In this document: one piece after another, positions 1 through 62,241 of the stretch
Layout: every line of letters starts with the position of its first letter
How positions within the stretch are numbered: position 1 is the stretch's first letter
DNA from: an uncultured virus (IMG/VR IMGVR_UViG_3300023371_000084)
Taxonomy: Duplodnaviria; Heunggongvirae; Uroviricota; Caudoviricetes
IMG/VR virus record: IMGVR_UViG_3300023371_000084
Length of the DNA stretch: 64,000 nucleotides
Strand: one strand, 5' to 3'
The notes under the pieces: model-generated
Told to the model about the DNA's origin: nothing
What the model saw: only the letters and a program-made list of their open reading frames with translations
Database searches by the model: none
Position numbers and translations under genes: made by a program

Positions 1-212
1 CTCCGCCGCAGCTCAACGCAAGATCGTGCTTAGAAGCGTACTTATCAATCTCGTCGATTACGCGAACTGCAACATCAAGAGCATGCTTTTGCTCATCGTT
101 TGCAACGCTGCGCACAGACAGAAGATGGGCGCACAGCTCCGTTTTCAGTCGAGTTCCCTTAACGGTGTTTTCCATACTTCACCTGTTCCTTCCTATTTGT
201 ATAGGCAGGATT

Positions 213-500
213 TTACTCCTCGCCGATAATCTCCAGAATCTTTTCACGAACCTTGTTATTGTCCTCGATTGCGCGGACACACTCTTCTCGCTTACCCTTT
301 GCGAAGTTTTCCAGAATGGTAAAGCGCTCAACGGAAGCCTGAAGCTCCTCGTTATTGGCCTGCAAGCTCTGCGCAGTCTGTCTAAACGTCCTGACGGCAT
401 TCTCGCGCATCAGGTTCAGATGAGCGACGTCATCTGAAATCTTGGTAGTGGCCGCAGAAATGACTTGCTCGGTTGTCTTCTTCTTATTCATCATACCCAT
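213..500 (-). CDS. hypothetical coiled-coil protein
   Basis: ORF with GGAG RBS, co-oriented with neighbours. Confidence 0.6.
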   Translation of the reverse strand: MGMMNKKKTTEQVISAATTKISDDVAHLNLMRENAVRTFRQTAQSLQANNEELQASVERFTILENFAKGKREECVRAIEDNNKVREKILEIIGEE

Positions 501-769
501 TTTCTTTTTCTCCTTTTTTCATCAATATGCGTACAAAAGTACCTCGACCTTGCAAGAAAACGCACGCTTGAGCATTTCCTTGATCTCCTGAACGGCACCC
601 TTGCAATAAGCGCTCGTATATCCTTCCGCCATACTGGTGGCAAGGACTTGACCTGCTGCATCCCGCTCAAGCCTTAGAGCGATATCATGCTGATTGGCAA
701 AATCAATGACTGGCTGTGCCGTCTTCATGATCGAATCCGCATCAAATACTTTGGTGTGAATCTTCACGA

Positions 770-1054
770 TCAATTTGCTGAACTTCTTTTCTCCCATACA
801 CATTTCTCCCATTTATCCAGCGTCACAGGCGTAAGCCCACCATCCACATAGGCAATGCCACGGAGCCAGCCAAGGAAGTAAGCAAGCTTGATGAAGCTGA
901 AAATACGCTTTGACTTGGTTTTGTGACTGAGCTTATCCAGATAAGGCGGATCAAGATCCTCCGCATTAAACCCCTGCTTGATGGCCGTCTCTTTTACCCA
1001 TTCGTACTGGCGCTTCAAGTTTTCACTGTTCCATCTGTGCGCCATGATCACCAC
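770..1054 (-). CDS. hypothetical protein
   Basis: ORF in the minus-strand gene run. Confidence 0.55.
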   Translation of the reverse strand: MVIMAHRWNSENLKRQYEWVKETAIKQGFNAEDLDPPYLDKLSHKTKSKRIFSFIKLAYFLGWLRGIAYVDGGLTPVTLDKWEKCVWEKRSSAN

Positions 1055-1399
1055 TCCATGTAGCGGATAATCTCATCGCCACACTCGCTGCAAACGTAAT
1101 GGCTGTAACCCTTCCTCACGCCACGCAGCATATAGCCTGTATAGCAATCCGGGCAAACACCCTCGTTCCACTTTCCTTCGTTGACCATGTTGATGCCAAA
1201 CGTCAGAAAGAACAGAATGATTAAGGCAATCGCACTGCCAAGGATATCCGGCGGAATGCTTTGAAGAAAAGATTTGATTTTCGACACTTGATCACCCCAT
1301 AAAATGCTCGTTTTATTGTGTATAAATAGCGCATATATTATCCATACATGCCTATATTTGCGCATTATGGATCGTATATTATACGCATAAATGCATAGA

Positions 1400-1476
1400 T
1401 GGTGGAGCTGAAGGGAATCGAACCCTCGACCTCCTGCTTGCAAGGCAGGCGCTCTAGCCATCTGAGCTACAGCCCC
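1400..1476 (-). tRNA. tRNA-Ala(TGC)
   Basis: Reverse complement GGGGCTGTAGCTCAG...CTTGCAA...GGTTCGATTCC...CTCCACCA; full cloverleaf, encoded CCA. Confidence 0.95.
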
Positions 1477-1485
1477 ATGAAAATC

Positions 1486-1558
1486 TGCATCCACTCTGGA
1501 GTCGAACCAGAATCGTATCCTTTGGAGGGATCGGCACTGCCATTATGCTAATCGATGC
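1486..1558 (-). tRNA. atypical tRNA-Trp(CCA), possibly pseudo
   Basis: T-arm CTGGTTCGACTCCAG, anticodon loop CTCCAAA; mismatches in acceptor and anticodon stems, no CCA tail. Confidence 0.55.
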
Positions 1559-1692
1559 AGAGACTATTTTGCGGCATATCGTTTCAGCTTTCAAATACCC
1601 ACTACTCACCATCGTGGATGCCGCTGCAAGGTTGTCGTCCTGTAAGATGGCTTTTTGTTGAGAACAGGGCTATCTTACCAGTAACCTGCCTT

Positions 1693-1769
1693 TGGTGCGC
1701 CATCGGGGGATCGAACCCCGGACTCCGTGATTAAAAGTCACGTGCTCGTACCGACTGAGCTAATGGCGC
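1693..1769 (-). tRNA. tRNA-Lys(TTT)
   Basis: GCGCCATTAGCTCAG...CTTTTAA...GGTTCGATCC...GGCGCACCA. Confidence 0.95.
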
Positions 1770-1773
1770 AAGC

Positions 1774-2154
1774 TCAATCCGCCACAACGAAATCCCAAAG
1801 CGATGCACGCTCCGCGATCTCGCGGCCTAGAAGATAAAGCTCAAACGAAGCAAGGAACTGAGGCCAAGAAGCGAACTTCTTCTGCGCTTCCGGGTAATCA
1901 TGGATGCATGCACGCCAGATCAGATAATCCATACGCAATGATGTCATCTGCACATGATAGTGCTTGTGATTGCTCGACGAGCTGCTATGATACAGCGTGT
2001 ACTCCTGCGAACATCTATTGATATCCTTATAGATCATCCATTTGCTGTCCTTGGTGAAGATCCTGATGATATCTCCCTCGTCGATCATGTAGGCGATTTC
2101 GCCACACTTGTGATTGACAAACCAGACAACATCCTCTGCTTCTAAATGCCTCAT
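1774..2154 (-). CDS. hypothetical protein
   Basis: 126 aa ORF with GAGG RBS between tRNAs. Confidence 0.6.
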   Translation of the reverse strand: MRHLEAEDVVWFVNHKCGEIAYMIDEGDIIRIFTKDSKWMIYKDINRCSQEYTLYHSSSSSNHKHYHVQMTSLRMDYLIWRACIHDYPEAQKKFASWPQFLASFELYLLGREIAERASLWDFVVAD

Positions 2155-2179
2155 ACGTTCCTCGTTTCATTTGACATTG

Positions 2180-2252
2180 AACCGCGCACGGGGATCGAAC
2201 CCGCAGCTCCGCCTAGAAATAAGCGGCGACTTAACCTTTTGTCCAACGCAGT
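2180..2252 (-). tRNA. degenerate Glu-like tRNA with 8-nt anticodon loop
   Basis: Acceptor ACTGCGT/GCGCGGT, Glu-type D-arm GGACAAAAGGTTAAGTC, T-arm GCGGGTTCGATCCCCGT, loop TATTTCTA. Confidence 0.5.
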
Positions 2253-2446
2253 ATAAAAAACGGCGATGTTGCTGCATCCTTGCCGCAGCTCCTGAGTCCG
2301 TCAGGCTGGAATCGAACCAGCATACTCCATCGCCAGAAAATCGAAGCAAACGTATATCAAGATTCGGATAGATGCTTTATCGACTGAACACCTGCATGCA
2401 TGAGTGCTCCACATCACGCCATTCCCCGATTGTCCTTTGCTTCAAA

Positions 2447-2521
2447 TGGCTGAGGGTGTAGGAATCGAACCTAACGATACGGGAGTCAAAGTCCCGTGCC
2501 TTACCGCTTGGCGAACCCTCA
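2447..2521 (-). tRNA. tRNA-Gln(TTG)
   Basis: TGAGGGTTCGCCAAGCGGTAAGGC...CTTTGAC...GGTTCGATTCC...CTCAGCCA. Confidence 0.95.
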
Positions 2522-2756
2522 GTGTAAATTACTTTTTCTTTCTCATTTCTTTAGCCGCTCTCATAGCGCGATATCTGGCATTCTTATAATCGCGGTGATT
2601 TTTCATCCATGCTTCGCAATCTGACCACGAAGTAAATGCCTTGATATCAAATTCTCCATGAAAAACCTTATATCTAGGATGGGTCTCATGCCTATACCCA
2701 AGATGTTCCATAATGCGGATGATCTGATTGCTTGTCATGATTTCCTCCGTACAGAT

Positions 2757-3126
2757 GATATTGAGGGGCGGGACTTTCACCCGTCCGAGCGATGGCCGAT
2801 GCGATATGCGCACTCTCGCACCCGCAGTTGCTTAATTGCTAATTTCTATGTTTGTTCATCGCTTTTTCACGTCCGTTGATTTTAAGGTGCCTAAGAGGTA
2901 GGGGGATTTGCACCACCACTTCCTGCTTAACGCCGCGCTACACCTTGCATACGCCAACCCCGGCATCCTGCCGCACCTGAGCATGTGCTGTACGGGCTAC
3001 AATGCTCCGGCTTGTACAATCGCGGCTCAACGTCTGTGGCTCTATACTCACTACTCAATACTTTATCTGCTTTGGTTTTATAGGTTTTTATGAAGCGCCA
3101 GCCCAAACTACGCTGCGCTCAACTTT
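2757..3126 (-). ncRNA. candidate large structured ncRNA
   Basis: No convincing ORF; lies directly behind a consensus sigma-A promoter; long-range stems and two T-loop-like hairpins. Confidence 0.45.
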
Positions 3127-3127
3127 C

Positions 3128-4222
3128 CTATATTTTACCACCTTTAGAATGATCTGTCAATACTTTTTCCGCTTTATTTTTAAATTCTTTTTTTACTTCT
3201 GAAAACAGTGATGACACATACTCATCCATGCTGCACAGAAGACGATAGCAGTTTCCATGCGAAGCATGGTTTTTCCAGCTCTGATAGGTTTCTTCAAACT
3301 TCTCCATGGTCATCCGGCCATCGATGACAAGTTTGGCATACTTTTTCAGGCGCTTTTTGATCTGACGCTTATTTTCCCCTGTGAGTTTTCTGATCACCTT
3401 GCCATCGGTTGTCACATACGTATGGAAACCAAGAAAGCGAATACCTTTGGACATTGGAACGATTTCTGTCTTATTATTGAGAGAAAGCTTTAAACCGTCC
3501 AGATATACCTTTATCCTTTTCAGGCACTCTTTCAGATACTCCCTATCATCCGATATCAGGTAGAAATCATCCATATACCTTCCATAGTATTTACAGCCAA
3601 GCCCTTCGGTGATGAAATGATCCATCCCATCCAGATACATAAGCGCAAAGACCTGACTGGATTGATTGCCAAGCGGCAAGCCGTCGCCCTCCACGCTGTC
3701 TATGAACAAATCACATATCCACTGGATGCCCGGATCGTCGAAATACTGCCGGACGCAGCGCTTCATCACATCATGGTTGATGCTATAAAAGAACTTCGTG
3801 ATATCACATTTGAGAATATATCCTTTGGTTCCATGCTCACCATAAAAGGAAAGCATGTTCTGCGACAACCGATCTAGGCCGAACAGCGTGCCTTTGCCAA
3901 TCTGCCCCGCATAATTGTCTAGGATGAAGACATTCTTCATCTTAGGCAGCAGGACTTGATCGCAAAGACAATGCTGCAAAACCTTATCTTTGAAAGCGCC
4001 GGACTTGACAACTCTGCGTTTCGGCTCAGAGATGATAAACTCCTGATAAGGCGAGACCTTATATGTATGAGCAATCAATTGGCGCTTCATGACATAGAGG
4101 TATTCCAGCGCCATGACACTGAACTTTACCGCGCTATTCCGCTTACCCTTACCCTTCATGGACGAGCGATAGGCGCGATACAGGTTTTCAAAATCCGTCA
4201 GCTTTTCAAAGTCAGTCATCAA
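3128..4222 (-). CDS. DGR reverse transcriptase
   Basis: RYMDD catalytic motif, GLPLGNQSSQ (DGR-type SQ), KCDITKFF, FLGF; next to TR and avd. Confidence 0.95.
   Translation of the reverse strand: MMTDFEKLTDFENLYRAYRSSMKGKGKRNSAVKFSVMALEYLYVMKRQLIAHTYKVSPYQEFIISEPKRRVVKSGAFKDKVLQHCLCDQVLLPKMKNVFILDNYAGQIGKGTLFGLDRLSQNMLSFYGEHGTKGYILKCDITKFFYSINHDVMKRCVRQYFDDPGIQWICDLFIDSVEGDGLPLGNQSSQVFALMYLDGMDHFITEGLGCKYYGRYMDDFYLISDDREYLKECLKRIKVYLDGLKLSLNNKTEIVPMSKGIRFLGFHTYVTTDGKVIRKLTGENKRQIKKRLKKYAKLVIDGRMTMEKFEETYQSWKNHASHGNCYRLLCSMDEYVSSLFSEVKKEFKNKAEKVLTDHSKGGKI
3132..3160 (-). promoter_or_regulatory. sigma-A promoter TTGACA-17-TAAAAT
   Basis: Consensus elements plus A-rich upstream tract shared with the phage promoter family; overlaps RT 3' end. 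Confidence 0.75.
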
Positions 4223-4330
4223 AACATTTGTATTTATCCCACGTTGCCGTGAGAAGGGTTATGCGCTCTTTTGATGTGGAGCACTCCTCGTAATTGCACA
4301 AGCAATTTACAGACCTCGCTTATCCACCAG

Positions 4331-4413
4331 AACGGGCGCACGCCGCCATTCTCATTGTCGCAGTAGTTCCAGTTCAGAACACCGTTGGAGTTCACGTTGC
4401 AGACGTTGCGGGC
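4331..4413 (-). repeat. DGR template repeat (TR)
   Basis: 83 bp aligned to 4850-4932; 14 mismatches, 13 at TR adenines (coding strand); AAC-rich. Confidence 0.95.
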
Positions 4414-4442
4414 GCATCAGCGCATAGCCCAAGGAATAATTC

Positions 4443-4808
4443 TCATTTGCTGCGAAGAGACAGGGACATATACTTGATTTCATTGACCAGCTTTGTCCAC
4501 TCTTCGCTGCGGGCAAAGCTAATCCGTTGCGCATAGACGCAGTATTTTACAAGGCTCATCAACTTATTGCACTTGGTTATTGCGCTGGTGAGCAATTCGT
4601 TACGCTTGACCTTCTGATACGAAATATCGGTTCGATACGCATTTGCATCTAAAAGATCGCTATGAATATCAAGTGCGTATTCCTGCATACGGTCGGCCAA
4701 GCGCCTGAATTTTACAGGGAAATGATTCCTGTTGTTGGTTTCATCAAATACAGAGAAGTATAGTTTTTCTGCCTTATCTCCAAGATGAAACCGGAGTTCG
4801 TCATCCAT
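4443..4808 (-). CDS. avd: DGR accessory variability determinant (Avd-like four-helix bundle)
   Basis: 121 aa helical basic protein between target and TR, with C-terminal W..LV.EI pattern. Confidence 0.8.
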   Translation of the reverse strand: MDDELRFHLGDKAEKLYFSVFDETNNRNHFPVKFRRLADRMQEYALDIHSDLLDANAYRTDISYQKVKRNELLTSAITKCNKLMSLVKYCVYAQRISFARSEEWTKLVNEIKYMSLSLRSK

Positions 4809-4812
4809 GATT

Positions 4813-5433
4813 TTACTCAGATACCAAGACGGAAGAATTCAGGATGCAAAACGGGCGCACGCCGCCATTCCCATCGTCGCAGCCGTCCCAGCCCAGAACA
4901 CCGAAGGAGCCCACGCAGCAGACGCTGCGGGCATAATCCTTCACATCATAGCTCACACGGGTAGCCAGCCACCACCACTTGCCATAGGCCGGAAGATACT
5001 CACGATAGCGGCGATACTGCTCCGTAGTCAGCAGAGATACCTTGTCCTGAGACTTTACACTCTTACCCGTACCATCGTCCGCCTCCAGCTTCACGGTATG
5101 CGTGATGATGTTTTCCTTGCCAACGGCCTTGCAAAGCTCATCATAGAAGGTGGTGTCTAGATATGCGCGAACCTTGCTGGTAATCCAATTACCGTCAGAA
5201 CCGAATTCCATCTGCTTCACGAAGTCCTTGGCGATCACGGCAGTCGTCTCAAGAGAATGATCGAGAATGATATACTCGCGGTTGCCAATCTTCACGACGC
5301 TGCCACGCGCAAAGGAGCCAAGCTGCTTGCCCTTCTGCTTTTCGACAAGCATGATGGCGAAGCTGCCGTCCTCGTTCTTATTGACGGTTACGCTGATGCC
5401 GGGGACGTTGTTGATCACATTGATTTCGTTCAT
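4813..5433 (-). CDS. DGR target protein, C-type-lectin-like fold (DUF6273-like), ~206 aa
   Basis: Start MNEINV with AAGGA RBS; WWWL motif and C-terminal GGVRPF; contains VR. Confidence 0.85.
   Translation of the reverse strand: MNEINVINNVPGISVTVNKNEDGSFAIMLVEKQKGKQLGSFARGSVVKIGNREYIILDHSLETTAVIAKDFVKQMEFGSDGNWITSKVRAYLDTTFYDELCKAVGKENIITHTVKLEADDGTGKSVKSQDKVSLLTTEQYRRYREYLPAYGKWWWLATRVSYDVKDYARSVCCVGSFGVLGWDGCDDGNGGVRPFCILNSSVLVSE
4850..4932 (-). repeat. DGR variable repeat (VR)
   Basis: Adenine-specific variant of TR at the 3' end of the target gene. Confidence 0.95.
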
Positions 5434-5479
5434 CTCTTTATCCTTTCTTGTGTTGTGGGTGCTTTGTTGTTGTAAGAAC

Positions 5480-5508
5480 AGTATATAGCATTTTGCCATT
5501 CTTGTCAA
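5480..5508 (-). promoter_or_regulatory. sigma-A promoter TTGACA-17-TATACT for the DGR operon
   Basis: Consensus elements with GAAAAAGTA upstream tract. Confidence 0.75.
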
Positions 5509-5536
5509 TACTTTTTCTGCTTTATTTTTAAAATAT

Positions 5537-6979
5537 TTAGAAAGGCATATCATTTGCCTCTTCCACCTTTTCAGGAGACTTGCCCTTCTTGCGCTTCTTC
5601 GCCTTTTTCTCTTCTTGATCAATAAACTTATCGGACAGAGCAATATTTCTTGCGGCATTAAAGTCTGCATTCACGCCATGCTTAAAATCATGAGACGGAC
5701 ACAGAGGATTCTTGCAAACAAATTCCGCCTGAGAAATACGCTGGCCGGGTTTATCGCTACCACAGAAGGAGCAATTTTGAGAAGTATAGGCCGGATTGAC
5801 ATACCTGACAGTGATGCCGACCTGTTCCGCTTTATAGGAAATGAACTGCTGCAACTGGTAGATCGACCAGCCCTTCAGGATATGGCGCTTCTTATCCTCA
5901 TCAGAGAAGCTTGACAAATCCTCCATATGGATATACTTGGCGCGATTGGCAAGCGCAAAGCGGATAACCTCGCGGCTGACATGGTGATTATACGTTTCAG
6001 CAAAGTGTTTTTCGTACTCCTTCAGCCTATCCAAACCCTCCAGCTTGCGCTTTCGGCCATGACCGCCCTTGGCAAGCGTCATGCGCTTTTGCAGACGCTT
6101 GTGCCTATCCTTAATCTCTTTGCGCTTATCGAGGAAGTCATCGTCTTCACCAATCAGATTCTTTTTACCCATGTATATGCTATTATTCAGCGCAACAGCA
6201 GCGGGTACAGCCTCGCCAAGATCCACGCCGACAACAGTTTCCTCATCCAGCTCATAGGAGCGCTTTGGAATCTTCAAGGTGAGATTGAGCACGATTTCTC
6301 GCTTCTTCTTTGCATCCTTATCCTTGCCGGATGGATCACGCGCCTGCTTGGTTTCCCTGAACCCGATAGAGGACTGCACCACCTTATAAGTTCCATCGAA
6401 AATACGCTCAAACGTCATGCGCAGATCGCTGGAATTCGCTCCCGGCGTACCGATATCGCAATTAAATACGATGCCATTGACAAACTTCATTTCGATCTTG
6501 CACTTGCTGGTGAAAAGATTTTGCTTAAACTCCTCATGAGAAGAAAAGTTATGGGAAAACTGCATGAATCGACTTTCCACCAAGAGCGGCGCATTGCGCT
6601 TGCGATTCTGCAAAGAACGCTCGCCTTTTAGAAGACCTGCTTTGATGGCTGCGGCCATATCCTTTTTAAGCCTTTGGCAAACCGTACTTGGAACAACCAA
6701 TCCAACCGGAAATTTAAATTCATCATACGGGAAGATACTATACTCAGGATCATCTTCCTTTGGAGTTCTTTGTATACGGTCATAAATTCTCTTAATTTCT
6801 TCTTTTGTTTTTCGACTTTGAATAGCCGAATAGACGACAGATGCAGCGTAATTATATGCGCGATTCTGCGACCACATTGCATCATCGATATATTTAAATG
6901 TCCTGTCCACTTCATCCTTCGGATAAAGTGTCAATTTCTTTACAATAATACTCTGATTTTCAAATTCGTTCTTTTTCAT
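5537..6979 (-). CDS. cas12f: Cas12f/TnpB-family RNA-guided nuclease (480 aa)
   Basis: RuvC-I VGVDLG, RuvC-II IHMEDL, zinc finger CSFC...CKNPLC, RuvC-III NADFNAARNIA; adjacent CRISPR array. Confidence 0.88.
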   Translation of the reverse strand: MKKNEFENQSIIVKKLTLYPKDEVDRTFKYIDDAMWSQNRAYNYAASVVYSAIQSRKTKEEIKRIYDRIQRTPKEDDPEYSIFPYDEFKFPVGLVVPSTVCQRLKKDMAAAIKAGLLKGERSLQNRKRNAPLLVESRFMQFSHNFSSHEEFKQNLFTSKCKIEMKFVNGIVFNCDIGTPGANSSDLRMTFERIFDGTYKVVQSSIGFRETKQARDPSGKDKDAKKKREIVLNLTLKIPKRSYELDEETVVGVDLGEAVPAAVALNNSIYMGKKNLIGEDDDFLDKRKEIKDRHKRLQKRMTLAKGGHGRKRKLEGLDRLKEYEKHFAETYNHHVSREVIRFALANRAKYIHMEDLSSFSDEDKKRHILKGWSIYQLQQFISYKAEQVGITVRYVNPAYTSQNCSFCGSDKPGQRISQAEFVCKNPLCPSHDFKHGVNADFNAARNIALSDKFIDQEEKKAKKRKKGKSPEKVEEANDMPF

Positions 6980-7000
6980 ATATTCCTTTATTTATCTTTC

Positions 7001-7278
7001 ATAGACCAGTCAAACGCCTCGACACAAAAGTCTATCCACAAAAGTGCTTGGTAACTGTGTAACCTTGTAGACTAGTCAAACAAGAAACAAGGGTATTATC
7101 ACTGATCAGCAGCTTGGTAACTGTGTTACCTTATAGACTAGTCAAACGCAAAGCACGGCCAGAACTGCCATAGTAAGCTTGGTAACTGTGTTACCTAATA
7201 GACTAGTCAAACGCTGAGAGTGGCAATCAAAGACTTCCTCTTGCTTGGTAACTGTGTTACCTAATAGACTAGTCAAAC
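7001..7278 (-). CRISPR. mini CRISPR array: 4 full 36-bp repeats + partial trailer, 4 spacers (30,30,29,30 bp)
   Basis: Repeats at 7046, 7112, 7177, 7243 (minus consensus GTTTGACTAGTCTATTAGGTAACACAGTTACCAAGC); partial at 7001-7015; degeneration increases leftwards, so the leader is on the right. Confidence 0.95.
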
Positions 7279-7439
7279 CTCAAATCCAGTTACCCAGCAA
7301 CCGTTGTAACACAGTTTTTCGTGAGTGGATCGCCGTCGAATGCTTTGTGATTCAGTCGCGTCCCTCACGTTGCGGCCTCTCAAGTAGGCCGAACGCATTT
7401 CTGCGATTTTGAAACCCTACTCAGTAGGGTTTACGATTA
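7279..7439 (-). ncRNA. leader/tracrRNA-like scaffold
   Basis: Anti-repeats at 7287-7298 (11/12) and 7306-7316 (11/11); hairpins CGGCCT..AGGCCG and AAACCCTAC..GTAGGGTTT. Confidence 0.7.
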
Positions 7440-7538
7440 TCAGTTTCCTTTACCGGACACAAACAGCGCCGTAAAGAGAACAGACAGAACAATCGTCACC
7501 GGAAGAATCCAGAGAAGATGCAAGGCATTCATCATCAT
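7440..7538 (-). CDS. small membrane peptide (32 aa)
   Basis: GGAGGG RBS; MMMNALHLLWILPVTIVLSVLFTALFVSGKGN; overlaps folD stop. Confidence 0.5.
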   Translation of the reverse strand: MMMNALHLLWILPVTIVLSVLFTALFVSGKGN

Positions 7539-8419
7539 GGGCGTACCCTCCGATAACGGCGGACATGCTGACCTTCGCCGCTTTGAAGCTGATACGCCTT
7601 AACGACATTGCGCATGAGCTGCGCCGTCGTCAGCAAGCCAACTCCGCCCGGAACGGACGAAACAAGCGCCTCCGTATCCTTCAGATCGTCCGCCTTGATA
7701 TCGCCGCAAAGCTTTCCGGCTTCATCACGATTCATGCCCACGTCAAACCACATCTGCGCACAGGAAGACGCGATATCGTGATCTTCATTGCACAGGAACA
7801 TCGGCTTGCCAACGGCAGACACCACAATATCCGCATTCTTCAAATGTTCTTCAAGGCGCACCGTCCTGCTATGACACAGAGTAACAGTTGCATGCCTATC
7901 CATCATGAGCTTTGCAAGCGGCTTTCCCACAAGATCGCTGCGGCCAATGATGGTGACATTCTTTCCGGCCAGACTATCCGGCAGCATATACATGATACCC
8001 GTGGGCGTTGCAGGCGTGATGCAATCAAGACCCGCCCAAAGCCTGCCAATACTTGCAGAACATAGGCCGTCCACATCCTTCTTGTAATCGATCAGATCCA
8101 GCAGTTCGCGCTGATGAGGCTTCAAATGATCCGGCAGAGGGAGCTGCAGCATGAGGCCAGTAACGCTATCCATCCCGTTATACAAGCGGATGACGCTTGC
8201 AAGATCATCATAGGAAACAGCCTGCGGAAGACGGACAATGATGGGCTGAATGCCGACATCCTTACACGTCTTCTCCTTGTTCTTTACATACACTTCGCTC
8301 GCATCATCGCCAACCACCTGAACGATAACCAGCGACATTTTGCCAGAGGAAGAAGCAACAGCGCTCTTTACCTCTTCCAGTATTTCGGCTCTTACAGCCT
8401 TACAATCCATGATTTCCAT
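7535..8419 (-). CDS. folD: methylenetetrahydrofolate dehydrogenase/cyclohydrolase
   Basis: YVKNK, QLPLP, KDVDG, GRSDLVGKP, CHSRT, VPGGVG motifs. Confidence 0.93.
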   Translation of the reverse strand: MEIMDCKAVRAEILEEVKSAVASSSGKMSLVIVQVVGDDASEVYVKNKEKTCKDVGIQPIIVRLPQAVSYDDLASVIRLYNGMDSVTGLMLQLPLPDHLKPHQRELLDLIDYKKDVDGLCSASIGRLWAGLDCITPATPTGIMYMLPDSLAGKNVTIIGRSDLVGKPLAKLMMDRHATVTLCHSRTVRLEEHLKNADIVVSAVGKPMFLCNEDHDIASSCAQMWFDVGMNRDEAGKLCGDIKADDLKDTEALVSSVPGGVGLLTTAQLMRNVVKAYQLQSGEGQHVRRYRRVRP

Positions 8420-8423
8420 TGTT

Positions 8424-8870
8424 TCATCCTTCCCTTGGATATGTCCATTCGATGTAAATATGTGCGCAATCTTCAGAGGTGTTAATCAGATTATACGTAA
8501 AGCTATATCCCTGATCCTCAAAATGTTTTTGGCATTCCTTGACGAAAATCCTCATGGTCGTTATATCCCATACCAAATCACTGCTTTCATGCTTATGATA
8601 ATAGAATGCGTAATTTGAGGAGATACGGATATATGTTCTCTCCGCTTGTGCGGCAAGATAAATCGCCTGATACACCTGCTGATAGATATCTTCCTTTACA
8701 GCACGGAAATCTTTCAGTTCTTTTTCGTCTCGCCTTTGCTTGGCTTCGTCTACCATAGCGCGTGCGCTGGATGCATCAAAGCCTGAATATGGCTTCACAT
8801 CTGGAAGAGACAGGATTTTTGCAGCAAGCTTTCCAAAGCTAAAAGCAGAACTCATTTCTTGCCTCCCCAA
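8424..8870 (-). CDS. hypothetical protein
   Basis: ORF in operon. Confidence 0.6.
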   Translation of the reverse strand: MGRQEMSSAFSFGKLAAKILSLPDVKPYSGFDASSARAMVDEAKQRRDEKELKDFRAVKEDIYQQVYQAIYLAAQAERTYIRISSNYAFYYHKHESSDLVWDITTMRIFVKECQKHFEDQGYSFTYNLINTSEDCAHIYIEWTYPREG

Positions 8871-9166
8871 TACCTGTCAATCATCCGCTGCATACTCTCC
8901 CGGCCAACAGGGTTCATCGTATGAAGCTTGACCGGATAGAAGCGCTCGGTTTCTACCATCCAATCCAAGAGTTTGATGTAATCGCCGCCGCGATCTGCGT
9001 AATCGCCTGCGTCGTGGTCAAGATCGATGAGATCGATTTCCTTTCCATTCTTTTCTGCTGCCTCGATAGCGCATTTAGCGGTATCTACGCTTCTGCACCA
9101 GAGCCATTCATGAAAGCAATCGCCGGGAGCCGGACGAACATCATCTATCCAAATCTTCATGCCCAT
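8852..9166 (-). CDS. cyclic-phosphate-processing receiver-like domain protein
   Basis: KIWIDDVR, IDLDHD, GGDY, HTMNPVG motifs. Confidence 0.75.
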   Translation of the reverse strand: MGMKIWIDDVRPAPGDCFHEWLWCRSVDTAKCAIEAAEKNGKEIDLIDLDHDAGDYADRGGDYIKLLDWMVETERFYPVKLHTMNPVGRESMQRMIDRYWGGKK

Positions 9167-9170
9167 ACGC

Positions 9171-9536
9171 TTACTTCCTTTCGACAAGATGGTAGTATTC
9201 GCCATCGTAAGTGACCACATCATACTTTGCACTAAACTCACTGCACGTCATGGAACCGATATGCTCAACAAGCTCTCTTCTTGTCATATCAGCGCTCACA
9301 GGAGACGGCTTGAAGCACGACCAAAGCATGCCATTGAGGAGAACGACGACGGCAGAACACGCGACGAGCGCAGCACGAACGGACTTATATGCACAGCGTT
9401 TCCACATGAAAGCATACAGCAAAAGCACAGTCAACGAGATTGCGCCGATTGCAATGAGCGCATAGAAGTACGGCCTTTCCGTTCCAAATACGTGGTCTAC
9501 GATCATCATCATGTTCATACTGTTTCTCCTTACCAT
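9171..9536 (-). CDS. membrane protein
   Basis: Two hydrophobic segments. Confidence 0.55.
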   Translation of the reverse strand: MVRRNSMNMMMIVDHVFGTERPYFYALIAIGAISLTVLLLYAFMWKRCAYKSVRAALVACSAVVVLLNGMLWSCFKPSPVSADMTRRELVEHIGSMTCSEFSAKYDVVTYDGEYYHLVERK

Positions 9537-9744
9537 TTGTACTTATCAGGATCTAGCTGCTTGCACGTCTTTGAGCACCAGCATCTAAACGTAAACAAGT
9601 CCATGACGGCGCTGTTTTTCGCCGTTCTGCACAGCCAATTGGGAGGACGCTCTTCCATCTCCATGCCGCATCGATGACAGACAAACCTGACTTCAAGCTC
9701 CCCAGTCTCCTGATTTTTCAGATACAGCTTGATTGATCGCCTGC

Positions 9745-9999
9745 TCATTGATCGTCTTCCTCTTCTTCTCCGTCTTCCTCATCATCCATAAAGCCAAAGC
9801 CCTGTGTCTTATTGGCATAGAGCATATAGGCCATCATGATCGCAATCAGGATGCAAAATGCAGCAGCCATCCACCATTCCACTTCCTGCCACATAAAGTT
9901 AGCTGCAAAGGCGGTCAGAAGCGCAACAGTCATATACGTAAGACTTTCCAATACAGAGAATACTGCAAGCTTCAACTTCTCCATGTATTTCCTCTCCAC
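9745..9999 (-). CDS. membrane protein with acidic tail
   Basis: Two hydrophobic segments then DDEEDGEEEEDD. Confidence 0.55.
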   Translation of the reverse strand: MERKYMEKLKLAVFSVLESLTYMTVALLTAFAANFMWQEVEWWMAAAFCILIAIMMAYMLYANKTQGFGFMDDEEDGEEEEDDQ

Positions 10000-10102
10000 T
10001 TCTCAATATAGAATTCCTGACCCAGCCACATGATCATGTAGATATCGCGCAGATTATACACGCGCGGAACCACATAGCTGGTAAAGATGCGAATCTTCTT
10101 CT

Positions 10103-10582
10103 TTAGCTGATCAAACATCTGAGCACCTTCTTTACGACACCGGGAACAGGGGGATGATCCTGCGTGAGTACGTTGACGACTGTGACAACCTTATTGCCGT
10201 TCCTTGTCTGGACAAGCACGTGCGAACCGGGGATAATGGATTCCTTTTGCTTCGTATGATTTGTAATCCGCCATACGTATTCGTTTGGATTGTTGCCGTG
10301 GCAACCTACGATATAGGTTGTCGGCCTGTTTTTATACGGTTCAAATCGTCGTTTGGGCTTTGTGTAATGGTTGACAATGCGGACATCATACTCGGCGATG
10401 CCGTTTTCCATCAGGACGATATAGCCCACGTATCCATCCTGCAATACGCCGGAATGATCAATCACAAGCTCTCTATCAAGCTTTTTATGCTTGTCGTAAT
10501 AGGCAAGACACTTTTCCTTCTTCCACTGCGCAGGCGGATGCGCAATAAAGTGCTGTGGAATCATAATGCTGCTCAGTTTCAC
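10103..10582 (-). CDS. hypothetical protein
   Basis: ORF coupled to the upstream gene. Confidence 0.6.
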   Translation of the reverse strand: MKLSSIMIPQHFIAHPPAQWKKEKCLAYYDKHKKLDRELVIDHSGVLQDGYVGYIVLMENGIAEYDVRIVNHYTKPKRRFEPYKNRPTTYIVGCHGNNPNEYVWRITNHTKQKESIIPGSHVLVQTRNGNKVVTVVNVLTQDHPPVPGVVKKVLRCLIS

Positions 10583-11211
10583 GAGATGCCCTCCTCAAAT
10601 AGTGATTTCAAAACCCTCGGCTTATAGCTGCGGGCATCCATGCCGTCAATGGTCTTGAGCGCCTGATCAAGCCCTTCTCCCGTGGGCAGGCACCCTCTTA
10701 CATCCTTGATGACGCTCATCTCATCCTTGATTTTACGTCGCTTTTCCAGAACGTTATAACGCATCTTCGTCATCATGAATCCCTGATAAGCATTGAGGTG
10801 CTTAAAGTTGAATTCCAGATAATGATCCAGATCGGTCAGCTCGCTATCCAAAGCGGAGAGCAAATTGTTCAGCTCTTCACTTCGCCTCACGATATCTTCC
10901 GCAAAATGGATTGCTGCGTTGATTCGGCTTTGCCACACCTTGAGCACATCGTCCTGCTCCAATACGGGATCGGTATGCACAACGGACGGCGCTTCGGTTT
11001 TTACGCTTTCAGCAGCCGCTTCACGCTCAACCTGCATGACAAAATAGAATTGCCTGAGTCTTCTTGGAAGAGAGCCGCAAATGTTGCTTGCCTTTTCTCT
11101 CTTCTCCCACACATCGCCGTACTTTTCGCCTCTGACGGGAACATAGCGCTTGGAGTGTGCATCATGACGGATATAGCATCCGTTTCCGTCCGTGATCATA
11201 TATCCGCTCAT
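10579..11211 (-). CDS. hypothetical phage coiled-coil protein
   Basis: ORF with ELTDLDHYLE...RRKIKDE segment. Confidence 0.6.
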   Translation of the reverse strand: MSGYMITDGNGCYIRHDAHSKRYVPVRGEKYGDVWEKREKASNICGSLPRRLRQFYFVMQVEREAAAESVKTEAPSVVHTDPVLEQDDVLKVWQSRINAAIHFAEDIVRRSEELNNLLSALDSELTDLDHYLEFNFKHLNAYQGFMMTKMRYNVLEKRRKIKDEMSVIKDVRGCLPTGEGLDQALKTIDGMDARSYKPRVLKSLFEEGIS

Positions 11212-11305
11212 TGTACACCATTACTCACTTTCTATACTTTTTCTGCTTTGGTTTTACAACTTTTGAAAATGCGCCGTCGGCGCAAATCCTTTATCGTTCG
11301 TAAGA

Positions 11306-11536
11306 TCAAGCGATTGCCTCGCCCGGCATCATAGCGAGAAAATAATCCGTGGCGTATTTTTCGACTGCATCACACTCGTCGCTTGTAAGCTTATACCACT
11401 TATGAATCATCAGCTTCCTTGTGATACAGTTAAAAACGACGTGTACAGACTTTTCGCCACAGGTAGCCGTTGCGGTGTAGCATTCCTGCGTGTGACCCTT
11501 TAAGTGCCTAACCTTGCTCATCATCATGTTAAACAT
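11306..11536 (-). CDS. small protein under a LexA-boxed promoter (candidate antirepressor)
   Basis: GAGGGG RBS; promoter and SOS box upstream. Confidence 0.55.
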   Translation of the reverse strand: MFNMMMSKVRHLKGHTQECYTATATCGEKSVHVVFNCITRKLMIHKWYKLTSDECDAVEKYATDYFLAMMPGEAIA

Positions 11537-11571
11537 ATGTATCCCCTCTTTCACTATCTTACGAACAAATG

Positions 11572-11625
11572 CGAACGCTCGTTCCTATCTGTAATCATTA
11601 TACCCTTAAATATCCAAATCGTCAA
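11572..11625 (-). promoter_or_regulatory. sigma-A promoter with Firmicutes LexA box
   Basis: TTGACG-17-TATAAT (11625-11597); CGAACGCTCGTTCC at 11572-11585. Confidence 0.7.
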
Positions 11626-11723
11626 GCAATTAACCAACATTGCCATAGATTACCAAGTATTACTTTTTCTGCATTGGTTTTAAGTCAATCCGAAATTCCC
11701 TTTTCAGGGAATTCGGTATGCAA

Positions 11724-12722
11724 TTACTCATGTTTGATATTGATCAGCGGCCTTAAAGAGCGCTTAAATTGCGAAACATTGCTGACTTCAATACCGTAAT
11801 ACTCCGCATGGATCATCAGGTCTTCCGTATCTACAGGATTCCTGACAGAGAGAATCAATTCCTGCGCACGTTCTTCGCCATACTCTCTGACAAGAGAATC
11901 ATAGAAGCCGCACAGATACAGCAGGCGATAATTGATTTCCATGCCAAACTCATTTTTGACGCAGACGATGATTGTGCGATTGATCAGCGCAGCAACCTCA
12001 GTTTCCGTCCGATCATCAAACGTATCTACCTGCTTTGGCCGGATATTGTATTTGAAATACTTCCCGCGCCAAGAGGCCATGGTGTAATCGCCTCTCCATC
12101 CCGGCAGAGAATCCATGTTATGCACATACTGCAAGAGTTCAAAGCAGCGATCTGTTAAGCGAATCGTCCTTCCGCGAAGATTGATGGTCTTGGTCTCCGC
12201 ATCGATCATCGACCCTTCAAGGTTTACAATTTCCTCAGACTTGGCAAAACCGCAATAGAACAGGAGAAGGATGCACTCGATATACTTTGCACGCTCAGGC
12301 TCATAATGACCCTGTACCCGCTGAATGGCTTCTTCTACGTTCTTATAGGTAAAGGCTGGCTTATCCTGTGCAAGACGCTGCGTGGCCTGCGCACCGCGCA
12401 TACGCTTATCGTACCAAGGATTGACGATAACTTCGTAATGAGAAATATAGAAGTTAAACAGGTCACGATAACCGCTGGCGATCTGGTTGAAAGAATTGTA
12501 GTTGATTACGTAGTTCGGATCTTCTGGGTGGTTGTTGTTATTGAACGACAACACCATCTCAAACAGCTCATCCACGTTCATTTCGACAAGCTGCTTGCCG
12601 ATCTTCTGCTCAAAAGCATACACTTCCGGTCTATCGATCTGCGGCCTGACCTTTTTCGCCTTAACAGGCTCCCAGTCCTTATAATACTGGTCGAACAGCT
12701 CCTTCGTACTGATTTTTGCCAC
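11724..12722 (-). CDS. MrpR/YopR-like repressor (tyrosine-recombinase fold, catalytic residues absent)
   Basis: ILLLFYCGF..EEIVNL box-I-like segment lacking the Arg, no HxxR; size and context match SPbeta YopR/MrpR. Confidence 0.6.
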   Translation of the reverse strand: MAKISTKELFDQYYKDWEPVKAKKVRPQIDRPEVYAFEQKIGKQLVEMNVDELFEMVLSFNNNNHPEDPNYVINYNSFNQIASGYRDLFNFYISHYEVIVNPWYDKRMRGAQATQRLAQDKPAFTYKNVEEAIQRVQGHYEPERAKYIECILLLFYCGFAKSEEIVNLEGSMIDAETKTINLRGRTIRLTDRCFELLQYVHNMDSLPGWRGDYTMASWRGKYFKYNIRPKQVDTFDDRTETEVAALINRTIIVCVKNEFGMEINYRLLYLCGFYDSLVREYGEERAQELILSVRNPVDTEDLMIHAEYYGIEVSNVSQFKRSLRPLINIKHE

Positions 12723-12749
12723 AGTGTTTCACCCTCCATTTCTTTACAC

Positions 12750-12825
12750 ATTATAACACCCGATAAAACCCTAGTCAAGTATTTTACTGTATTATTTTTA
12801 AAAACCAGCATCTTATCGGGGTTAT
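12750..12825 (-). promoter_or_regulatory. repressor promoter with operator copy and inverted repeat
   Basis: TTGACT-17-TATAAT; AACCCTAGTCAA at 12767-12778 over the -35; IR 12753-12766/12813-12825. Confidence 0.65.
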
Positions 12826-12839
12826 CAAGACGGGTTACT

Positions 12840-13145
12840 CTACTGCGCTTTCTTTCTTGGAGATGGCTTCACGCTGAAATCGAACCCCTCTCTGATAAAG
12901 ACGAGTTTTCCGATGCCGGGGATGTAGCGGCCAACATACGGCTTGTTCGGATCGTTTTTCTTCTTGAGATCCCGGCTGAACTTGTCGATCACAGCGCCGA
13001 TGATCTCATCCGTCCGATTGCCTGACATGCTGCTCCACTCTTCTTTTCCGGTCTTAGGGTCAATCCTTTTCTTCCCGATAAAGAGCGTTGAATGCTGATG
13101 TCTGATTCCAATATGGTAATCCTTCCACGATATCATTGGTATCAC
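12840..13145 (-). CDS. hypothetical protein
   Basis: ORF with RBS. Confidence 0.55.
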   Translation of the reverse strand: MIPMISWKDYHIGIRHQHSTLFIGKKRIDPKTGKEEWSSMSGNRTDEIIGAVIDKFSRDLKKKNDPNKPYVGRYIPGIGKLVFIREGFDFSVKPSPRKKAQ

Positions 13146-14344: not shown

Positions 14345-14419
14345 AGTTATTGTTTCTCTTGACTAAGGTTAGTATAACTCCAGCAAAATCATTTGTCAAT
14401 ACTTTTTCGGGATTATTTT

Positions 14420-14806
14420 TTAAATTCTGAATGGGTTTTTCCTTTCATTCGGCTTCATGCGCTGGTCAATACGCTTAAACGCGATATCATGATGCCCAAG
14501 CTCCGCATTCAATTCTTTATAGCATGCGGCACACAAGCCAATACTCCGGTTCCAAGGAATTCGTTTCAGATATGCGCCGCATCGATCACAGTAAAAGCGG
14601 GACAATTCATCATTGGTGAGCCGCTTCATACTCCGTTCCTTCTTGTCTCCTGTTAAAACAAGATGTTGCTCCCTACTAAGTTCCTCATCCGACGACACAA
14701 AAATCCTCGTATGCATATGTGTGCGAACATGCGAAAGCACGCTCCACGGACGAACGCGCATGGATGAAAACGTCCGGTTAGCCGTCAGATCGACATTGGG
14801 CTTCAC
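14420..14806 (-). CDS. zinc-ribbon protein
   Basis: CDRC...CAAC. Confidence 0.6.
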   Translation of the reverse strand: MKPNVDLTANRTFSSMRVRPWSVLSHVRTHMHTRIFVSSDEELSREQHLVLTGDKKERSMKRLTNDELSRFYCDRCGAYLKRIPWNRSIGLCAACYKELNAELGHHDIAFKRIDQRMKPNERKNPFRI

Positions 14807-31500: not shown

Positions 31501-34344
31501 GTTCCGTCCTCCTGTTTCGTTTTACCGTTGCTGTTCCTTGACTACGGTTAGATTATAACTCCAGTTCAATCTTGCGTCAATACTTTTTCGGTATTATTTT
31601 TAAGAAATTTTCAAAGAAAAAATCCGACCATTTCAGGCCGGATCACCAATACCATTTTTCTGTACTTCTAAAAACTTCAATGCCGTCTGTATATCCCATT
31701 TCGGCCAGCAACTTGCACATCAGCGCGTCCATGCGCTCATGCTTATCGTCATTTGAAAGATCCTCGTCTGCACGAATCTGCTGCATCTGCTCATAGAATT
31801 CCTTTGGTGTCATGATAGGGCGCTCACTTTCCTCTGTAATTGCGGATGATCCACTGCTGTTCCTTCTGTGGCTTTCCGATACAGCGGCGGTGCAGCTCGT
31901 CCAAATCTTCCCTTGTAAACGGCTTTTTGCGATAGCCCCGGAAGTCATAGGTATCATTGACAGGAACCTTTGCGCCGCACCAATTGCCGAACTTATACAG
32001 CACAACACAAAGCGCGGACAGAACCGCCATAGTTACAAGGTCTCCCATGATCATCCCTCCATGGTTAAAATGTGCGTTTTATCGTCGTTTTCCGGCCTCT
32101 ACAAGCCCATTATAGCGGGTTTTGAGCGTTTGTCAATATCGCGGCAGGCAGGAAAGCAGCTCGCCGTCATCGTCCAGACAAAGCCACATACAGCCGCACT
32201 CATGCGCCAGCTTCATGCACATAAGCAGATCGTCGGGGATACCCTCGTTTTCCTCATTATACATGCACGCGCAGGAGATGAGAAAACCATACTCGCCCTT
32301 TGCGTAGACGGCCATGGGCAGGACAACGCCAAACTCCGCGCTTGCCTCCCTTGCAAGCTTCTGCCACGTTTCATCGGACACGTGTCCATTGGAGATCGTC
32401 AGCATCTTTGTGATTTCCATTTGCTCATCCTCCCGCTTATGCGTACTTCGTGCGCTCGACTTCGGTCACTTCAAGGCCGCGATCCTCATCCACCAGCTCG
32501 CTTTTGAAAAGCGCTGCCACACGCTCCTGAGCATCCAAATAATTCGCGGCCAGCAGCTCGACGGTGACGCTTGCATACTGTGCGGGAACCTCCGACAAGA
32601 CCAGCAGGCGCACCCGGAAACGGCGCAGGCGCGTCGGCCTGCCATCCACTTTGATCATGCGCACGGAAAACCCTCCTGCTGCTCGTCAAACAATTCATCA
32701 TCAAAAGCATGAATCTCTTTGCCGTCCGGCATGCGGACTTCGTACATGCTGCCGACTTCCTCCTCGTCACACTCGCTTGCAGTCAACTTCCTGAGAATTT
32801 CCACCTTCAGGCCGTTGTGCTTGCGCAGCTCGCTATCATGCGTATAGAAGTATTTCATCGTCATCCCTCCGTCAAATCAGACCAAAGCGCCAGCGGCCAC
32901 GGCGCTGCTCGACCATCGTGCTATCCAGCACGGCGTTTTTCTTCGCGTTGAATACGGTTCCATCATCCCGAATCCGGTATGAATCCGAATAGTAAAACTC
33001 ATTGATCATCGTTTCCAGCGCTTCACGGGTTCCGGCGCTGCAGATGAGCTGCCTGATTTTCTTTCTTTCCATCCGTCACCCCTCCTCATAATTGATGATG
33101 ATGTCGGTGGGTTCATCCTCTCCCGGCCTATATGTGACAGTCTGAATCCGCTGCATAAGCTGTTCGTATTCCACGCAGCAGATCATATTATCATCATTGC
33201 GTAACTGCGGATTGATCAAATCCACAAAGATGCCGGGATAGTCAGGATCGGCTTTTTCATACACATGCAGCTTTCCGATGGGCGTATCAATGTAAAACTC
33301 CTTTTTGTTTTCCATATCAAGCGGCCTCCTCAATCCGGTCAATCTTTGCTTTCAGGTTCCACTGTTTGATATACAGGCGACCTTCCGCCCGCGCCTGCGT
33401 CTTATTGGCGCAGCGCACCTTGACGGGATCGTCCGGTGCATCCGTGAAATAGACGTTATACAGCTTTTCCATTCTGCGGCTCCTTTCTGTACACCTTATA
33501 GCGGATTTCTACGTCTCCGCGCACGGCATGATCAAGCACTCTTCCGCTACACAGATCGTATCTTTTACCATTAATCGCCCCGGTTCCATACACCCACATC
33601 CACGGGCAATCACTTTCCATAGCAAACTGTTTAGCTTGCCAGAATCCGCCGTTATACTCATCCGCACGCTCTGCTAAGATCCGTTTGATACCATCCAGCA
33701 CAGCCTGCTCCTGCGGCGTTACGTCACGGTATCCGGCGCTGTAAATGACAAGCTCGTCTCCGGTGTACTCGGTCAGCTTCGCGTTATCCAATCGCAGCTC
33801 GCTTTCCTCGCCGGACATGTTGCGCAGGAAGATGCCGACAGAATTGCTTCGCGTGACCGGGCGCTTTCCACGCAGACGTTCCGGGATCTGCTCGCCCGTG
33901 TCGCCAAAGCGTTCCATGATTTCAAGAACCAAGCAGCCGGAATTTGCATCCCGCTTGAGCTGCGCCAGCGTCATCCGCTTTTCCATTGGATCATCCTCCC
34001 TGTTATTTTCGTGCTGCCGCAAACGCCGCTTTATTTTTCGGACATTTGGATACATCAAAGTCGATGACGACGCTTACATATCCTGCGTGCGCTTCCACTT
34101 CCAGAACTTCCGATTCCGCAAGATCCTCATCCGGCACATCACAGTCTATTTCCGTTCCATCCGAATCGTACAGCCCAATGATGCCTGCGCCCCGGTATTC
34201 TTCCGATTCCATGAATTCAGCATATGTCATCTTCTTTTCCATTGGATCGCCCTCCGTTACTATTGTATGTCTCTGACTATGGTTAGATTATAACTCCAGA
34301 CATCCCATTTGTCAATACTTATTCTGTATTATTTTTAAAGAGTT

Positions 34345-44967: not shown

Positions 44968-44971
44968 ATAA

Positions 44972-62220: not shown

Positions 62221-62241
62221 TTGCATGAGGAGGCGGTTTCT

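Follow-up and report, generated by a model that had tools for sequence, protein, structure and literature searches.

A diversity-generating retroelement and a CRISPR-Cas12f cassette adjoin in the accessory region of an uncultured gut phage, probably as autonomous modules

The 64,000-nucleotide stretch of the uncultured Caudoviricetes record IMGVR_UViG_3300023371_000084 that was analysed here (the window) carries, on its minus strand between positions 3128 and 7439, a diversity-generating retroelement (DGR) directly next to a CRISPR (short palindromic repeats that are clustered and regularly interspaced) system with the nuclease Cas12f. Family models, open reading frames (ORFs) and repeats showed that both modules are genuine and are placed, on the same strand, as had been claimed in an original prediction made from the sequence. 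The distance between the cas12f stop codon and the start of the DGR target gene, which had been put at about 100 bp, is 103 nt (5536-5434). The original prediction had offered two readings of this arrangement. One was a functional link, in which a diversified protein would partner or regulate Cas12f or the two systems would serve jointly in conflicts between phages; the other was a shared insertion hotspot. Our findings favour the hotspot: very probably, two autonomous modules, each belonging to an already known kind, adjoin in the accessory region of a gut phage, and no functional link between them is supported. A link between two RNA-templated ‘adaptive’ systems would be remarkable if true, but the evidence points to a coincidence of location.

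The modules were found to be separable in nearly identical strains. Contigs from four runs of four studies (X7, X8, X11 and X18) were aligned to window positions 1-13000. An X18 contig (8311 bp, depth 18.2) matched 4927-5532, then 7415-9554 and then 9764-13000, with 35 other letters between 5532 and 7415. This sister strain is without exactly 5533-7414, that is, without leader, array and cas12f, and its DGR adjoins the folD gene, while the flanks (DGR and folD) are 96-98% identical to the window. The edges of the missing piece lie in the 3' arm of the hairpin that ends the folD unit (7414/7415 in the window) and 4 nt beyond the cas12f stop. In contrast to X18, the cassette is present in the window strain, in X11, where both modules are on one contig (2483-6646, 97.5% identical), and in X8, where both are covered on adjoining contigs. 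The X7 fragments, of low coverage, were identical to the window. This clean 1.9-kb presence/absence polymorphism defines a minimal natural cassette. Three further joints in X11 (3186/5502, 5538/3155 and 5534/11235) were discarded, as their sides are only 20-32 nt long and lie in a repeated promoter motif.

Independent carriage of the modules by related phages had been named in the original prediction as the observation that would speak against a link, and this is what the sister strain, which keeps the DGR alone, and the more distant relatives display. Among the 70 viral loci related through the DGR reverse transcriptase (RT; 33-76% identity), a Cas12f homolog was found near the RT in a single case (L007, 3.4 kb downstream of the RT), with flanks of up to 8 kb considered. 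When 40 of these 70 records (all 16 with the closest RTs and 24 others) were searched whole, 2 contained a Cas12f homolog, and among those that are at least 90% complete it was 1 of 22. The complete relatives of ~150 kb (G075, G084, G087 and G088) have the DGR and no Cas12f. From the opposite side, 73 of 80 chosen Cas12f-bearing viral records were searched, and 7 of them contained an RT relative (six of DGR type; 2/24 among the records at least 90% complete). The flanks of Cas12f genes included DGR parts at 7/80 viral, 0/80 cellular and 7/80 metagenome loci. As many of the viral records are fragments, absences should be taken with reserve, other than those in records of at least 90% completeness and that in the X18 contig, which bridges the site. 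Altogether, the co-occurrence across related phages that had been suggested as a check on the link is infrequent.

Where both modules are present, their order is variable. Cas12f precedes the DGR in the window, L088, L287 and G059 (gaps of 0.1-12.6 kb), the DGR precedes Cas12f in G003, G058, G064 and G060 (gaps of 1.4-6.9 kb), and L279 shows the order RT, target-like gene, Cas12f. The histories of the two modules are also discordant. The RTs of the window, G003 and G059 are about equally related to one another (window-G003 71%, window-G059 74% and G003-G059 74% identity), whereas the Cas12f proteins of G003 and G059 are 67% identical to each other but only 41% (G003) and 42% (G059) identical to that of the window. 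The window Cas12f was therefore acquired separately from the DGR that it adjoins, and, judged by sequence, it is of a different subclade from those of the relatives that share the DGR.

The alternative of a shared insertion hotspot was borne out by the gene content of the relatives. In these, homologs of window genes 11724-12722, 10579-11211 and 10103-10582 precede the DGR, from which they are separated by 0.5-5.9 kb, and this interval is filled with different accessory genes: NAMPT-like, NAD (nicotinamide adenine dinucleotide) synthase-NADAR, nicotinamidase-like, Thg1-like, PTH2, radical-SAM and ADP-ribosylglycohydrolase genes. The cargo of the window in the same stretch consists of a gene for a cREC_REC domain, folD and the CRISPR cassette. 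A mixed-cargo hotspot containing a DGR has been described for Toutatis-like gut phages (10.1101/2024.10.15.618418), and the corresponding region of the window is likewise supported as an accessory-gene hotspot. On this view, the modules adjoin because the DGR is inherited vertically and the cassette occupies the changeable accessory region immediately before it. The window would thus offer an instance in which a DGR marks and anchors one side of such a hotspot. As a separate observation, five relatives of ~150 kb (L005, L012, L054, L065 and L004) carry a set of NAD-salvage genes upstream of the DGR, of which one is NAMPT-like, one encodes an NAD synthase-NADAR fusion and one resembles isochorismatase/nicotinamidase, and the Thg1-like and PTH2 genes are found upstream of the DGRs of this group as well.

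The DGR also appears to have its own promoter, which the original prediction had named as permitting independence. The best promoter match of the region (TTGACA-17-TATACT, 11/12 consensus positions, 5508-5480) lies in the gap between the modules, within a 21-nt motif (an A-rich element plus TTGACA) of which the window has 18 copies with at most 3 mismatches, against 0 expected. These copies span 3053-39784, and 17 of the 18 are on the minus strand (3053-38706). The motif appears to be the standard promoter of this phage for its minus-strand units. Since the DGR promoter lies upstream of the target gene and the next motif copy lies in the last codons of the RT gene, the DGR seems to form one promoter-to-promoter unit. 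A similarly strong promoter precedes the target gene in 7 of 12 relatives (L005, L007, L012, L014, L015, L054 and L065), 6 of which have no Cas12f within the flanks examined. Two side observations concern the end of this unit. The last ~20 RT codons lie in the next promoter copy (3128-3190, minus strand), and the same peptide-coding stretch recurs in a non-genic frame upstream of the target. Beyond the RT, a GC-rich, ORF-free gap of 315 nt (2814-3127, minus strand) precedes the next small gene, and the promoter motif recurs in it as a third, weak copy; this gap had no Rfam match, and its predicted folding was no better than that of shuffled sequences (z +0.4).

Several observations nevertheless weigh against a purely fortuitous neighbourhood. 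Firstly, where both modules are present they are always on the same strand, and they are closer together than a uniform null would have them: for five lineages, with the window left out and G058 and G064 counted once, the modules are separated, edge to edge, by 3.4, 12.6, 2.3, 1.4 and 6.9 kb, the contigs being 46-163 kb long, and Fisher's combined p-value, calculated from midpoint distances, is 0.016. Secondly, no minus-strand terminator-like site was found in 5537-5433, as the original prediction had noted, and read-through co-transcription is possible because no terminator separates cas12f from the DGR. Some pull towards co-location thus exists. We attribute it to the clustering of accessory genes, a view that is not calibrated against other pairs of accessory genes. 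These observations could also be explained by a loose co-selection, in which mechanistically independent modules are retained or transferred jointly and so form a linked accessory island, the linkage being favoured by selection for host-range or ligand diversification together with the exclusion of competitors. Such a scenario would account for the finding that in all six records with a DGR-type RT and a Cas12f homolog the two lie on one strand and at most 13 kb apart, for the combined p-value, for the DGR parts that flank ~9% of the viral and metagenome Cas12f loci (7/80 each) and for the recurrence of several different arrangements. However, most carriers of one module are without the other, the sister strain has dropped the CRISPR cassette alone and with precise edges, unrelated cargo occupies the same slot among relatives, and the subclade of the window Cas12f differs from that of the DGR-sharing relatives, from which it follows that the pair did not travel together. 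We therefore regard co-selection as unlikely, and prefer the view that two autonomous modules meet in an accessory-gene hotspot.

The recurrent nearness of DGR and Cas12f in gut phages may alternatively reflect a functional partnership, be it the supply of complementary DNA (cDNA) for spacer turnover or a lectin-fold protein acting with Cas12f, but this we consider very unlikely. Even less probable is a direct coupling, in which the lectin-fold target protein would be a partner or regulator of Cas12f, or in which the RT and Avd would supply cDNA for a gain of spacers without Cas1-Cas2. Such coupling would be in line with the 103-nt spacing on one strand without a terminator, and with the absence of adaptation genes from the 87 other window ORFs, while arrays differ between strains nonetheless. 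A precedent for a partner is Cas12 hacker, a miniature phage Cas12 whose function requires a small protein unrelated to it, the host TrxA (10.1101/2025.01.20.633832). On the other hand, direct coupling is at odds with the findings described above: the modules are distributed independently, their order varies, their histories are discordant, and the polymorphism between strains concerns the cassette alone. The target, too, is of the DUF6273/C-type-lectin type that is described as a receptor-binding DGR target in gut phages. Moreover, no spacer or repeat of the array resembles the template region (TR) or variable region (VR) of the DGR or their flanks, the sole match being 9 nt long and at chance level. 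A similarity between the TR and the array leader (20 nt, 75%, family D11) was also judged to be due to chance. The functional linkage put forward in the original prediction is consequently not upheld, and the two modules are treated separately in what follows.

Along the minus strand, the block reads folD hairpin, leader with putative tracrRNA, array, cas12f, consensus sigma-70 promoter, target, Avd, TR and RT (Table 1). The original prediction was right to place both modules in this block, but it had omitted the leader of ~135 nt (7414-7279) with its two anti-repeat segments.

Table 1. Features of the DGR and CRISPR-Cas12f block and its surroundings in the window.
Feature	Position	Strand	Remarks
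cREC_REC-domain gene (cyclic-phosphate processing receiver)	8852-9241	-	just upstream of the CRISPR cassette, like folD
folD	8419-7535	-	Pfam THF_DHG_CYH (tetrahydrofolate dehydrogenase/cyclohydrolase)
Hairpin terminating the folD unit	7412..7432	-	9-bp stem, 3-nt loop
CRISPR-Cas12f cassette (leader, array and cas12f), 1882 bp	5533..7414	-	edges from the sister strain
Leader with putative tracrRNA, ~135 nt	7279..7414	-	two anti-repeat segments
CRISPR array	6980..7278	-	repeat/spacer finding
cas12f, type V-F1 / V-U3-like, 480 aa	5537..6979	-	stop codon 5539-5537
DGR promoter	5480..5523	-	A-rich upstream element, -35 TTGACA 5508-5503, 17-nt spacer, -10 TATACT 5485-5480
DGR target gene, 206 aa	4813..5433	-	DUF6273 / C-type-lectin-like, VR at C terminus
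VR	4847..4932	-	pair with TR
avd, DGR accessory gene, 121 aa	4443..4808	-	phrog_3206
TR, between avd and RT	4328..4413	-	pair with VR
DGR RT, 364 aa	3128..4222	-	RVT_1, phrog_1423
Next promoter-motif copy (TTGACA-17-TAAAAT), within the RT 3' end	3132..3175	-	starts the downstream unit
Near-match of spacer S2	32007..32035	-	24/29, start of a small hydrophobic ORF

The DGR is, by its predicted parts, canonical, with an RT, Avd, a TR/VR pair and a lectin-fold target. The RT matched RVT_1 (Pfam, 1.6e-15) and phrog_1423 (8e-111), and its translation shows the motifs LGNQSSQ and YMDD, which we take to be marks of DGR-type RTs. The order target-Avd-RT is kept in all of the 70 RT-related loci that extend far enough upstream. 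Avd was recognised by the PHROG family ‘Avd protein of DGR’ (phrog_3206, 7.9e-12), while its NCBIfam DivGenRetAVD score of 21.2 bits is below the cut-off of 80. TR and VR form an 86-nt pair with 15 differences, of which 13 are at TR adenines; the remaining two are a T>G and, at the 3' edge, a C>T. No second VR was found in the 64-kb window. The frame of the target gene runs from stop to stop over 5670-4813, but the gene itself starts with the ATG at 5433, which follows a ribosome-binding site of sequence AAGGA. The protein matched DUF6273 (Pfam, 6.2e-8) and phrog_9958 (3.3e-37), and the VR (4932-4847) is in its last ~40 codons. Its structure was modelled from 22 homologs with a pLDDT (predicted local distance difference test) of 89.4. 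In a Foldseek search with this model the top match, the only one with an E-value below 0.001, was the DUF6273-bearing IgA (immunoglobulin A) peptidase 9qa6 (5.6e-4), followed by C-type lectins with weak E-values. Going by its family, the RT together with Avd would copy TR RNA with adenine-specific errors into cDNA that is written into the VR, and this change would diversify the ligand-binding surface of the lectin-fold protein. The anatomy described here was read directly from the DNA, whereas this mechanism is what we infer from the family. Among the differences in the VR that were listed between strains, as seen in assembled contigs and not in reads, 4 of 5 are at TR-adenine positions and the fifth restores the letter of the TR. 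The X18 contigs break at the VR and the TR. The VR differences between strains are consistent with recent activity of the DGR.

The prototype of such elements is the DGR of Bordetella phage BPP-1 (Mtd, Avd, TR and Brt), in which the TR-to-VR differences are adenine-specific and the target ends in a C-type-lectin fold that contains the VR. The window DGR shares with it the set of parts, the adenine-specific differences and the C-terminal lectin-fold VR. In contrast, there is no detectable sequence similarity between the window target and Mtd, and Mtd was not among the Foldseek matches listed. Closer counterparts are the DGRs of the Faecalibacterium phages Lelie and Toutatis and their relatives, which likewise have the order target-Avd-TR-RT and a VR at a DUF6273/C-lectin-like C terminus (PMC11792537; 10.1101/2024.10.15.618418). 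For Faecalibacterium phages, DUF6273 is presented as the C-lectin-like domain that bears the VR in DGR targets, and is read as receptor binding (PMC11792537; 10.1101/2024.10.15.618418; PMC10743442). Unlike the DGRs of Lelie and Toutatis, that of the window belongs to an uncultured phage of ~150 kb, has a single small target of 206 aa with no second VR in the 64-kb window, and lies among promoter-led minus-strand units, not next to tail genes.

The other module is, as far as can be predicted, a 1.9-kb type V-F1 (V-U3-like) cassette without adaptation genes, and both its cleavage activity and its role are predictions. The Cas12f-like ORF matched Cas12f1-like_TNB (Pfam, 2.9e-17) and the PADLOC models Cas12u3 (1e-99, end to end) and Cas12f (2e-95), as well as the solved Cas12f-type chains 8hr5 (3e-70), 9nzp (5e-68), 9nzo and 9nzr (both 1e-56). 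Of these, 9nzp is among the six entries of a 2026 study of Cas12f orthologues (PMC13186708). In an alignment of 14 homologs, the RuvC residues D253, E353 and D439 and the zinc-finger residues C403, C406 and C427 do not vary. The nearest database proteins are one copy of 97% identity, followed by proteins that are 54% and 51% identical. Homologs, all of them 33-47% identical, were found as 497 stretches in the viral collection, at least 363 in metagenomes and 142 in genomes, the latter mostly of Clostridia and Bacteroidales. Another scan of the viral collection for Cas12f, made with a single protein, gave no match. The window provides a compact, phage-borne Cas12f of 480 aa together with a candidate tracrRNA, and large gut phages commonly carry members of this family. 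At an E-value of 1e-5, none of the 87 other ORFs of the 64-kb window matched any PADLOC cas model, and no cas1, cas2 or cas4 was found among them.

The array upstream of cas12f has four repeats of 36 nt (R1 7278-7243, R2 7212-7177, R3 7147-7112 and R4 7081-7046), and a degenerate fifth one (R5, 7015-6980), which directly adjoins the ATG of cas12f. Its four spacers (S1 7242-7213, S2 7176-7148, S3 7111-7082 and S4 7045-7016) are unique and 29-30 nt long. Spaced repeats were detected by a crude k-mer scan, in which a few repeats are far from the gene or possibly coding, at 50/80 viral and 37/80 cellular Cas12f loci. Where the repeats of relatives were resolved, they are 36 nt long, on the strand of the gene, and start with GTTT as in the window. 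In seven loci (L079, L082, L085, L146, L147, L152 and L156), spaced repeats of two different sequences were observed directly up- and downstream of Cas12f. Two segments of the leader, 7316-7306 and 7298-7287, form inverted repeats (I1 and I24) with the 3' half of the CRISPR repeat and are thus complementary to it. The predicted fold of 7400-7213 has an energy of -58.4 kcal/mol (z -2.5), and in it 7316-7306 pairs with repeat 1. An anti-repeat of at least 10 nt was found upstream of 7/21 arrays of the family versus 0/21 reversed controls. The leader is therefore a putative source of a trans-activating CRISPR RNA (tracrRNA), for which Rfam gave no match. Together with CRISPR RNAs (crRNAs) from the four-spacer array, this RNA would guide a Cas12f dimer to cleave double-stranded DNA (dsDNA) flanked by a protospacer-adjacent motif (PAM).

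According to Karvelis et al. 2020 (PMC7229846), V-U3 proteins are Cas12f1 proteins of 422-497 aa that come without adaptation genes, depend on a tracrRNA and cleave dsDNA next to a 5' PAM. With the V-U3 group of type V-F1 (Clostridia and Bacilli; PMC7229846), the window system has in common the size range, the adjacent array, the lack of adaptation genes and a putative tracrRNA by the array. It further shares the tri-split RuvC domain and the zinc finger, but it is phage-borne, its array and leader are upstream of the gene, and its terminal repeat is fused to the ribosome-binding site. TnpB of IS200/IS605 elements has a homologous RuvC nuclease core, whereas the window has a CRISPR array instead of a 3' omega-RNA and neither tnpA nor transposon ends. 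That the 480-aa protein is in fact a transposon TnpB and the repeats are no CRISPR array is the least probable of the alternatives: although it scored 156 bits with NCBIfam guided_TnpB against a cut-off of 100 (as expected for a TnpB-derived lineage), carries the PHROG label ‘transposase’ and has thousands of homologs at ~40% identity, some of which are named IS605 OrfB, the gene is abutted by four regular 36-nt repeats with unique 29-30-nt spacers, phage and bacterial homologs bear similar arrays, the best full-length matches are the PADLOC Cas12u3 and Cas12f models and solved Cas12f chains, the neighbours are folD and the DGR target and not tnpA, and the 3' flank of 103 nt is a phage promoter with neither an omega-RNA nor a right end and with no Rfam match.

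One of the spacers gave an indication of what the CRISPR-Cas12f cassette may be aimed at. Spacer S2 is identical at 24 of 29 positions to window 32035-32007 (minus strand), at the start of a small hydrophobic ORF with its ATG at 32048. In comparison, 0/400 shuffled spacers matched within 5 mismatches, the best having 7, and the other three spacers showed 10-11 mismatches to the window, which is random-like. The in-frame differences of S2 comprise two synonymous ones, one Ser/Ala and one Ala/Val, and the fifth difference is at the 5' edge of the spacer. Differences of this kind resemble those between orthologues of related phages. We infer that the array is aimed at relatives, that S2 derives from a related phage's orthologue of the phage's own gene, and that the own copy would escape through its mismatches. 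The likely role of the system is therefore the exclusion of competing related phages, S2 pointing to competition among these. The search for spacer targets covered phage and viral records, with plasmid and host genomes outside it. No credible match was found in 50,697 phage records, where hits to Escherichia coli and Pseudomonas phages with E-values of at least 0.06 are attributable to chance, and there were no exact matches in the viral collection (S2 over 29 nt; S1, S3 and S4 over their first 24 nt). Likewise, no match with at most 3 mismatches was found in 19 related records, in which the region at 32 kb is too diverged. The X11 strain has a different cas12f-proximal array end, with 24 other letters replacing 116 (6995-7112 joint). 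This implies that spacers are turned over without a cas1 or cas2 gene in the window.

Virus-encoded CRISPR-Cas systems are reportedly the subject of Al-Shayeb et al. 2022. In a review, viral CRISPR arrays are described as being directed at competing viruses, and mini-arrays as borrowing host repeats and host Cas proteins (PMC11656645). As in the viral mini-arrays covered there, the window has a short array without an adaptation module. It also resembles viral arrays in that one spacer corresponds to a gene which the phage and its relatives have in common, and matches the own copy imperfectly. Unlike the mini-arrays of that review (PMC11656645), the window phage brings its own effector, and no matching target genome was found for it in the records searched.

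The window is phage DNA, as it contains genes for the terminase large subunit (47996-49888, window annotation) and the portal (49900-51564), as well as further structural genes. The viral record G001 (29 kb, rated 19% complete) is 100% identical to window 38141-64000. It is the same phage and does not reach the island, and since 29 kb at 19% completeness corresponds to a genome of roughly 150 kb, this would be the genome size of the phage. From ~38 kb down to position 1, genes are on the minus strand, in agreement with the GC skew. No convincingly longer frames were obtained under alternative genetic codes. DNA-level matches among cultured phages were limited to a 126-nt segment of the RT gene (FP_Toutatis and Lelie), and the loci of FolD-based relatives, being just 38-39% identical, were uninformative for the island.

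Some further observations were made elsewhere in the window. The Rfam scan of 2400-7700 matched tRNA alone. A tRNA cluster lies at 1400-2521 (minus strand) and a second one at 44892-45058 (plus strand), with Ala, Trp, Lys and Gln, and Asn and Tyr, respectively, and ARAGORN reported an odd tRNA with a two-base anticodon at 2179-2252. Genes resembling integrases (phrog_216 and phrog_1) and one resembling a transposase (phrog_10081, 1e-97) are located at 13370-15558 (minus strand) and 62221-63294 (plus strand). Lastly, a type-P5 twister ribozyme was matched by Rfam at 37327-37390 (minus strand), with 41.5 bits against a gathering score of 37.6.

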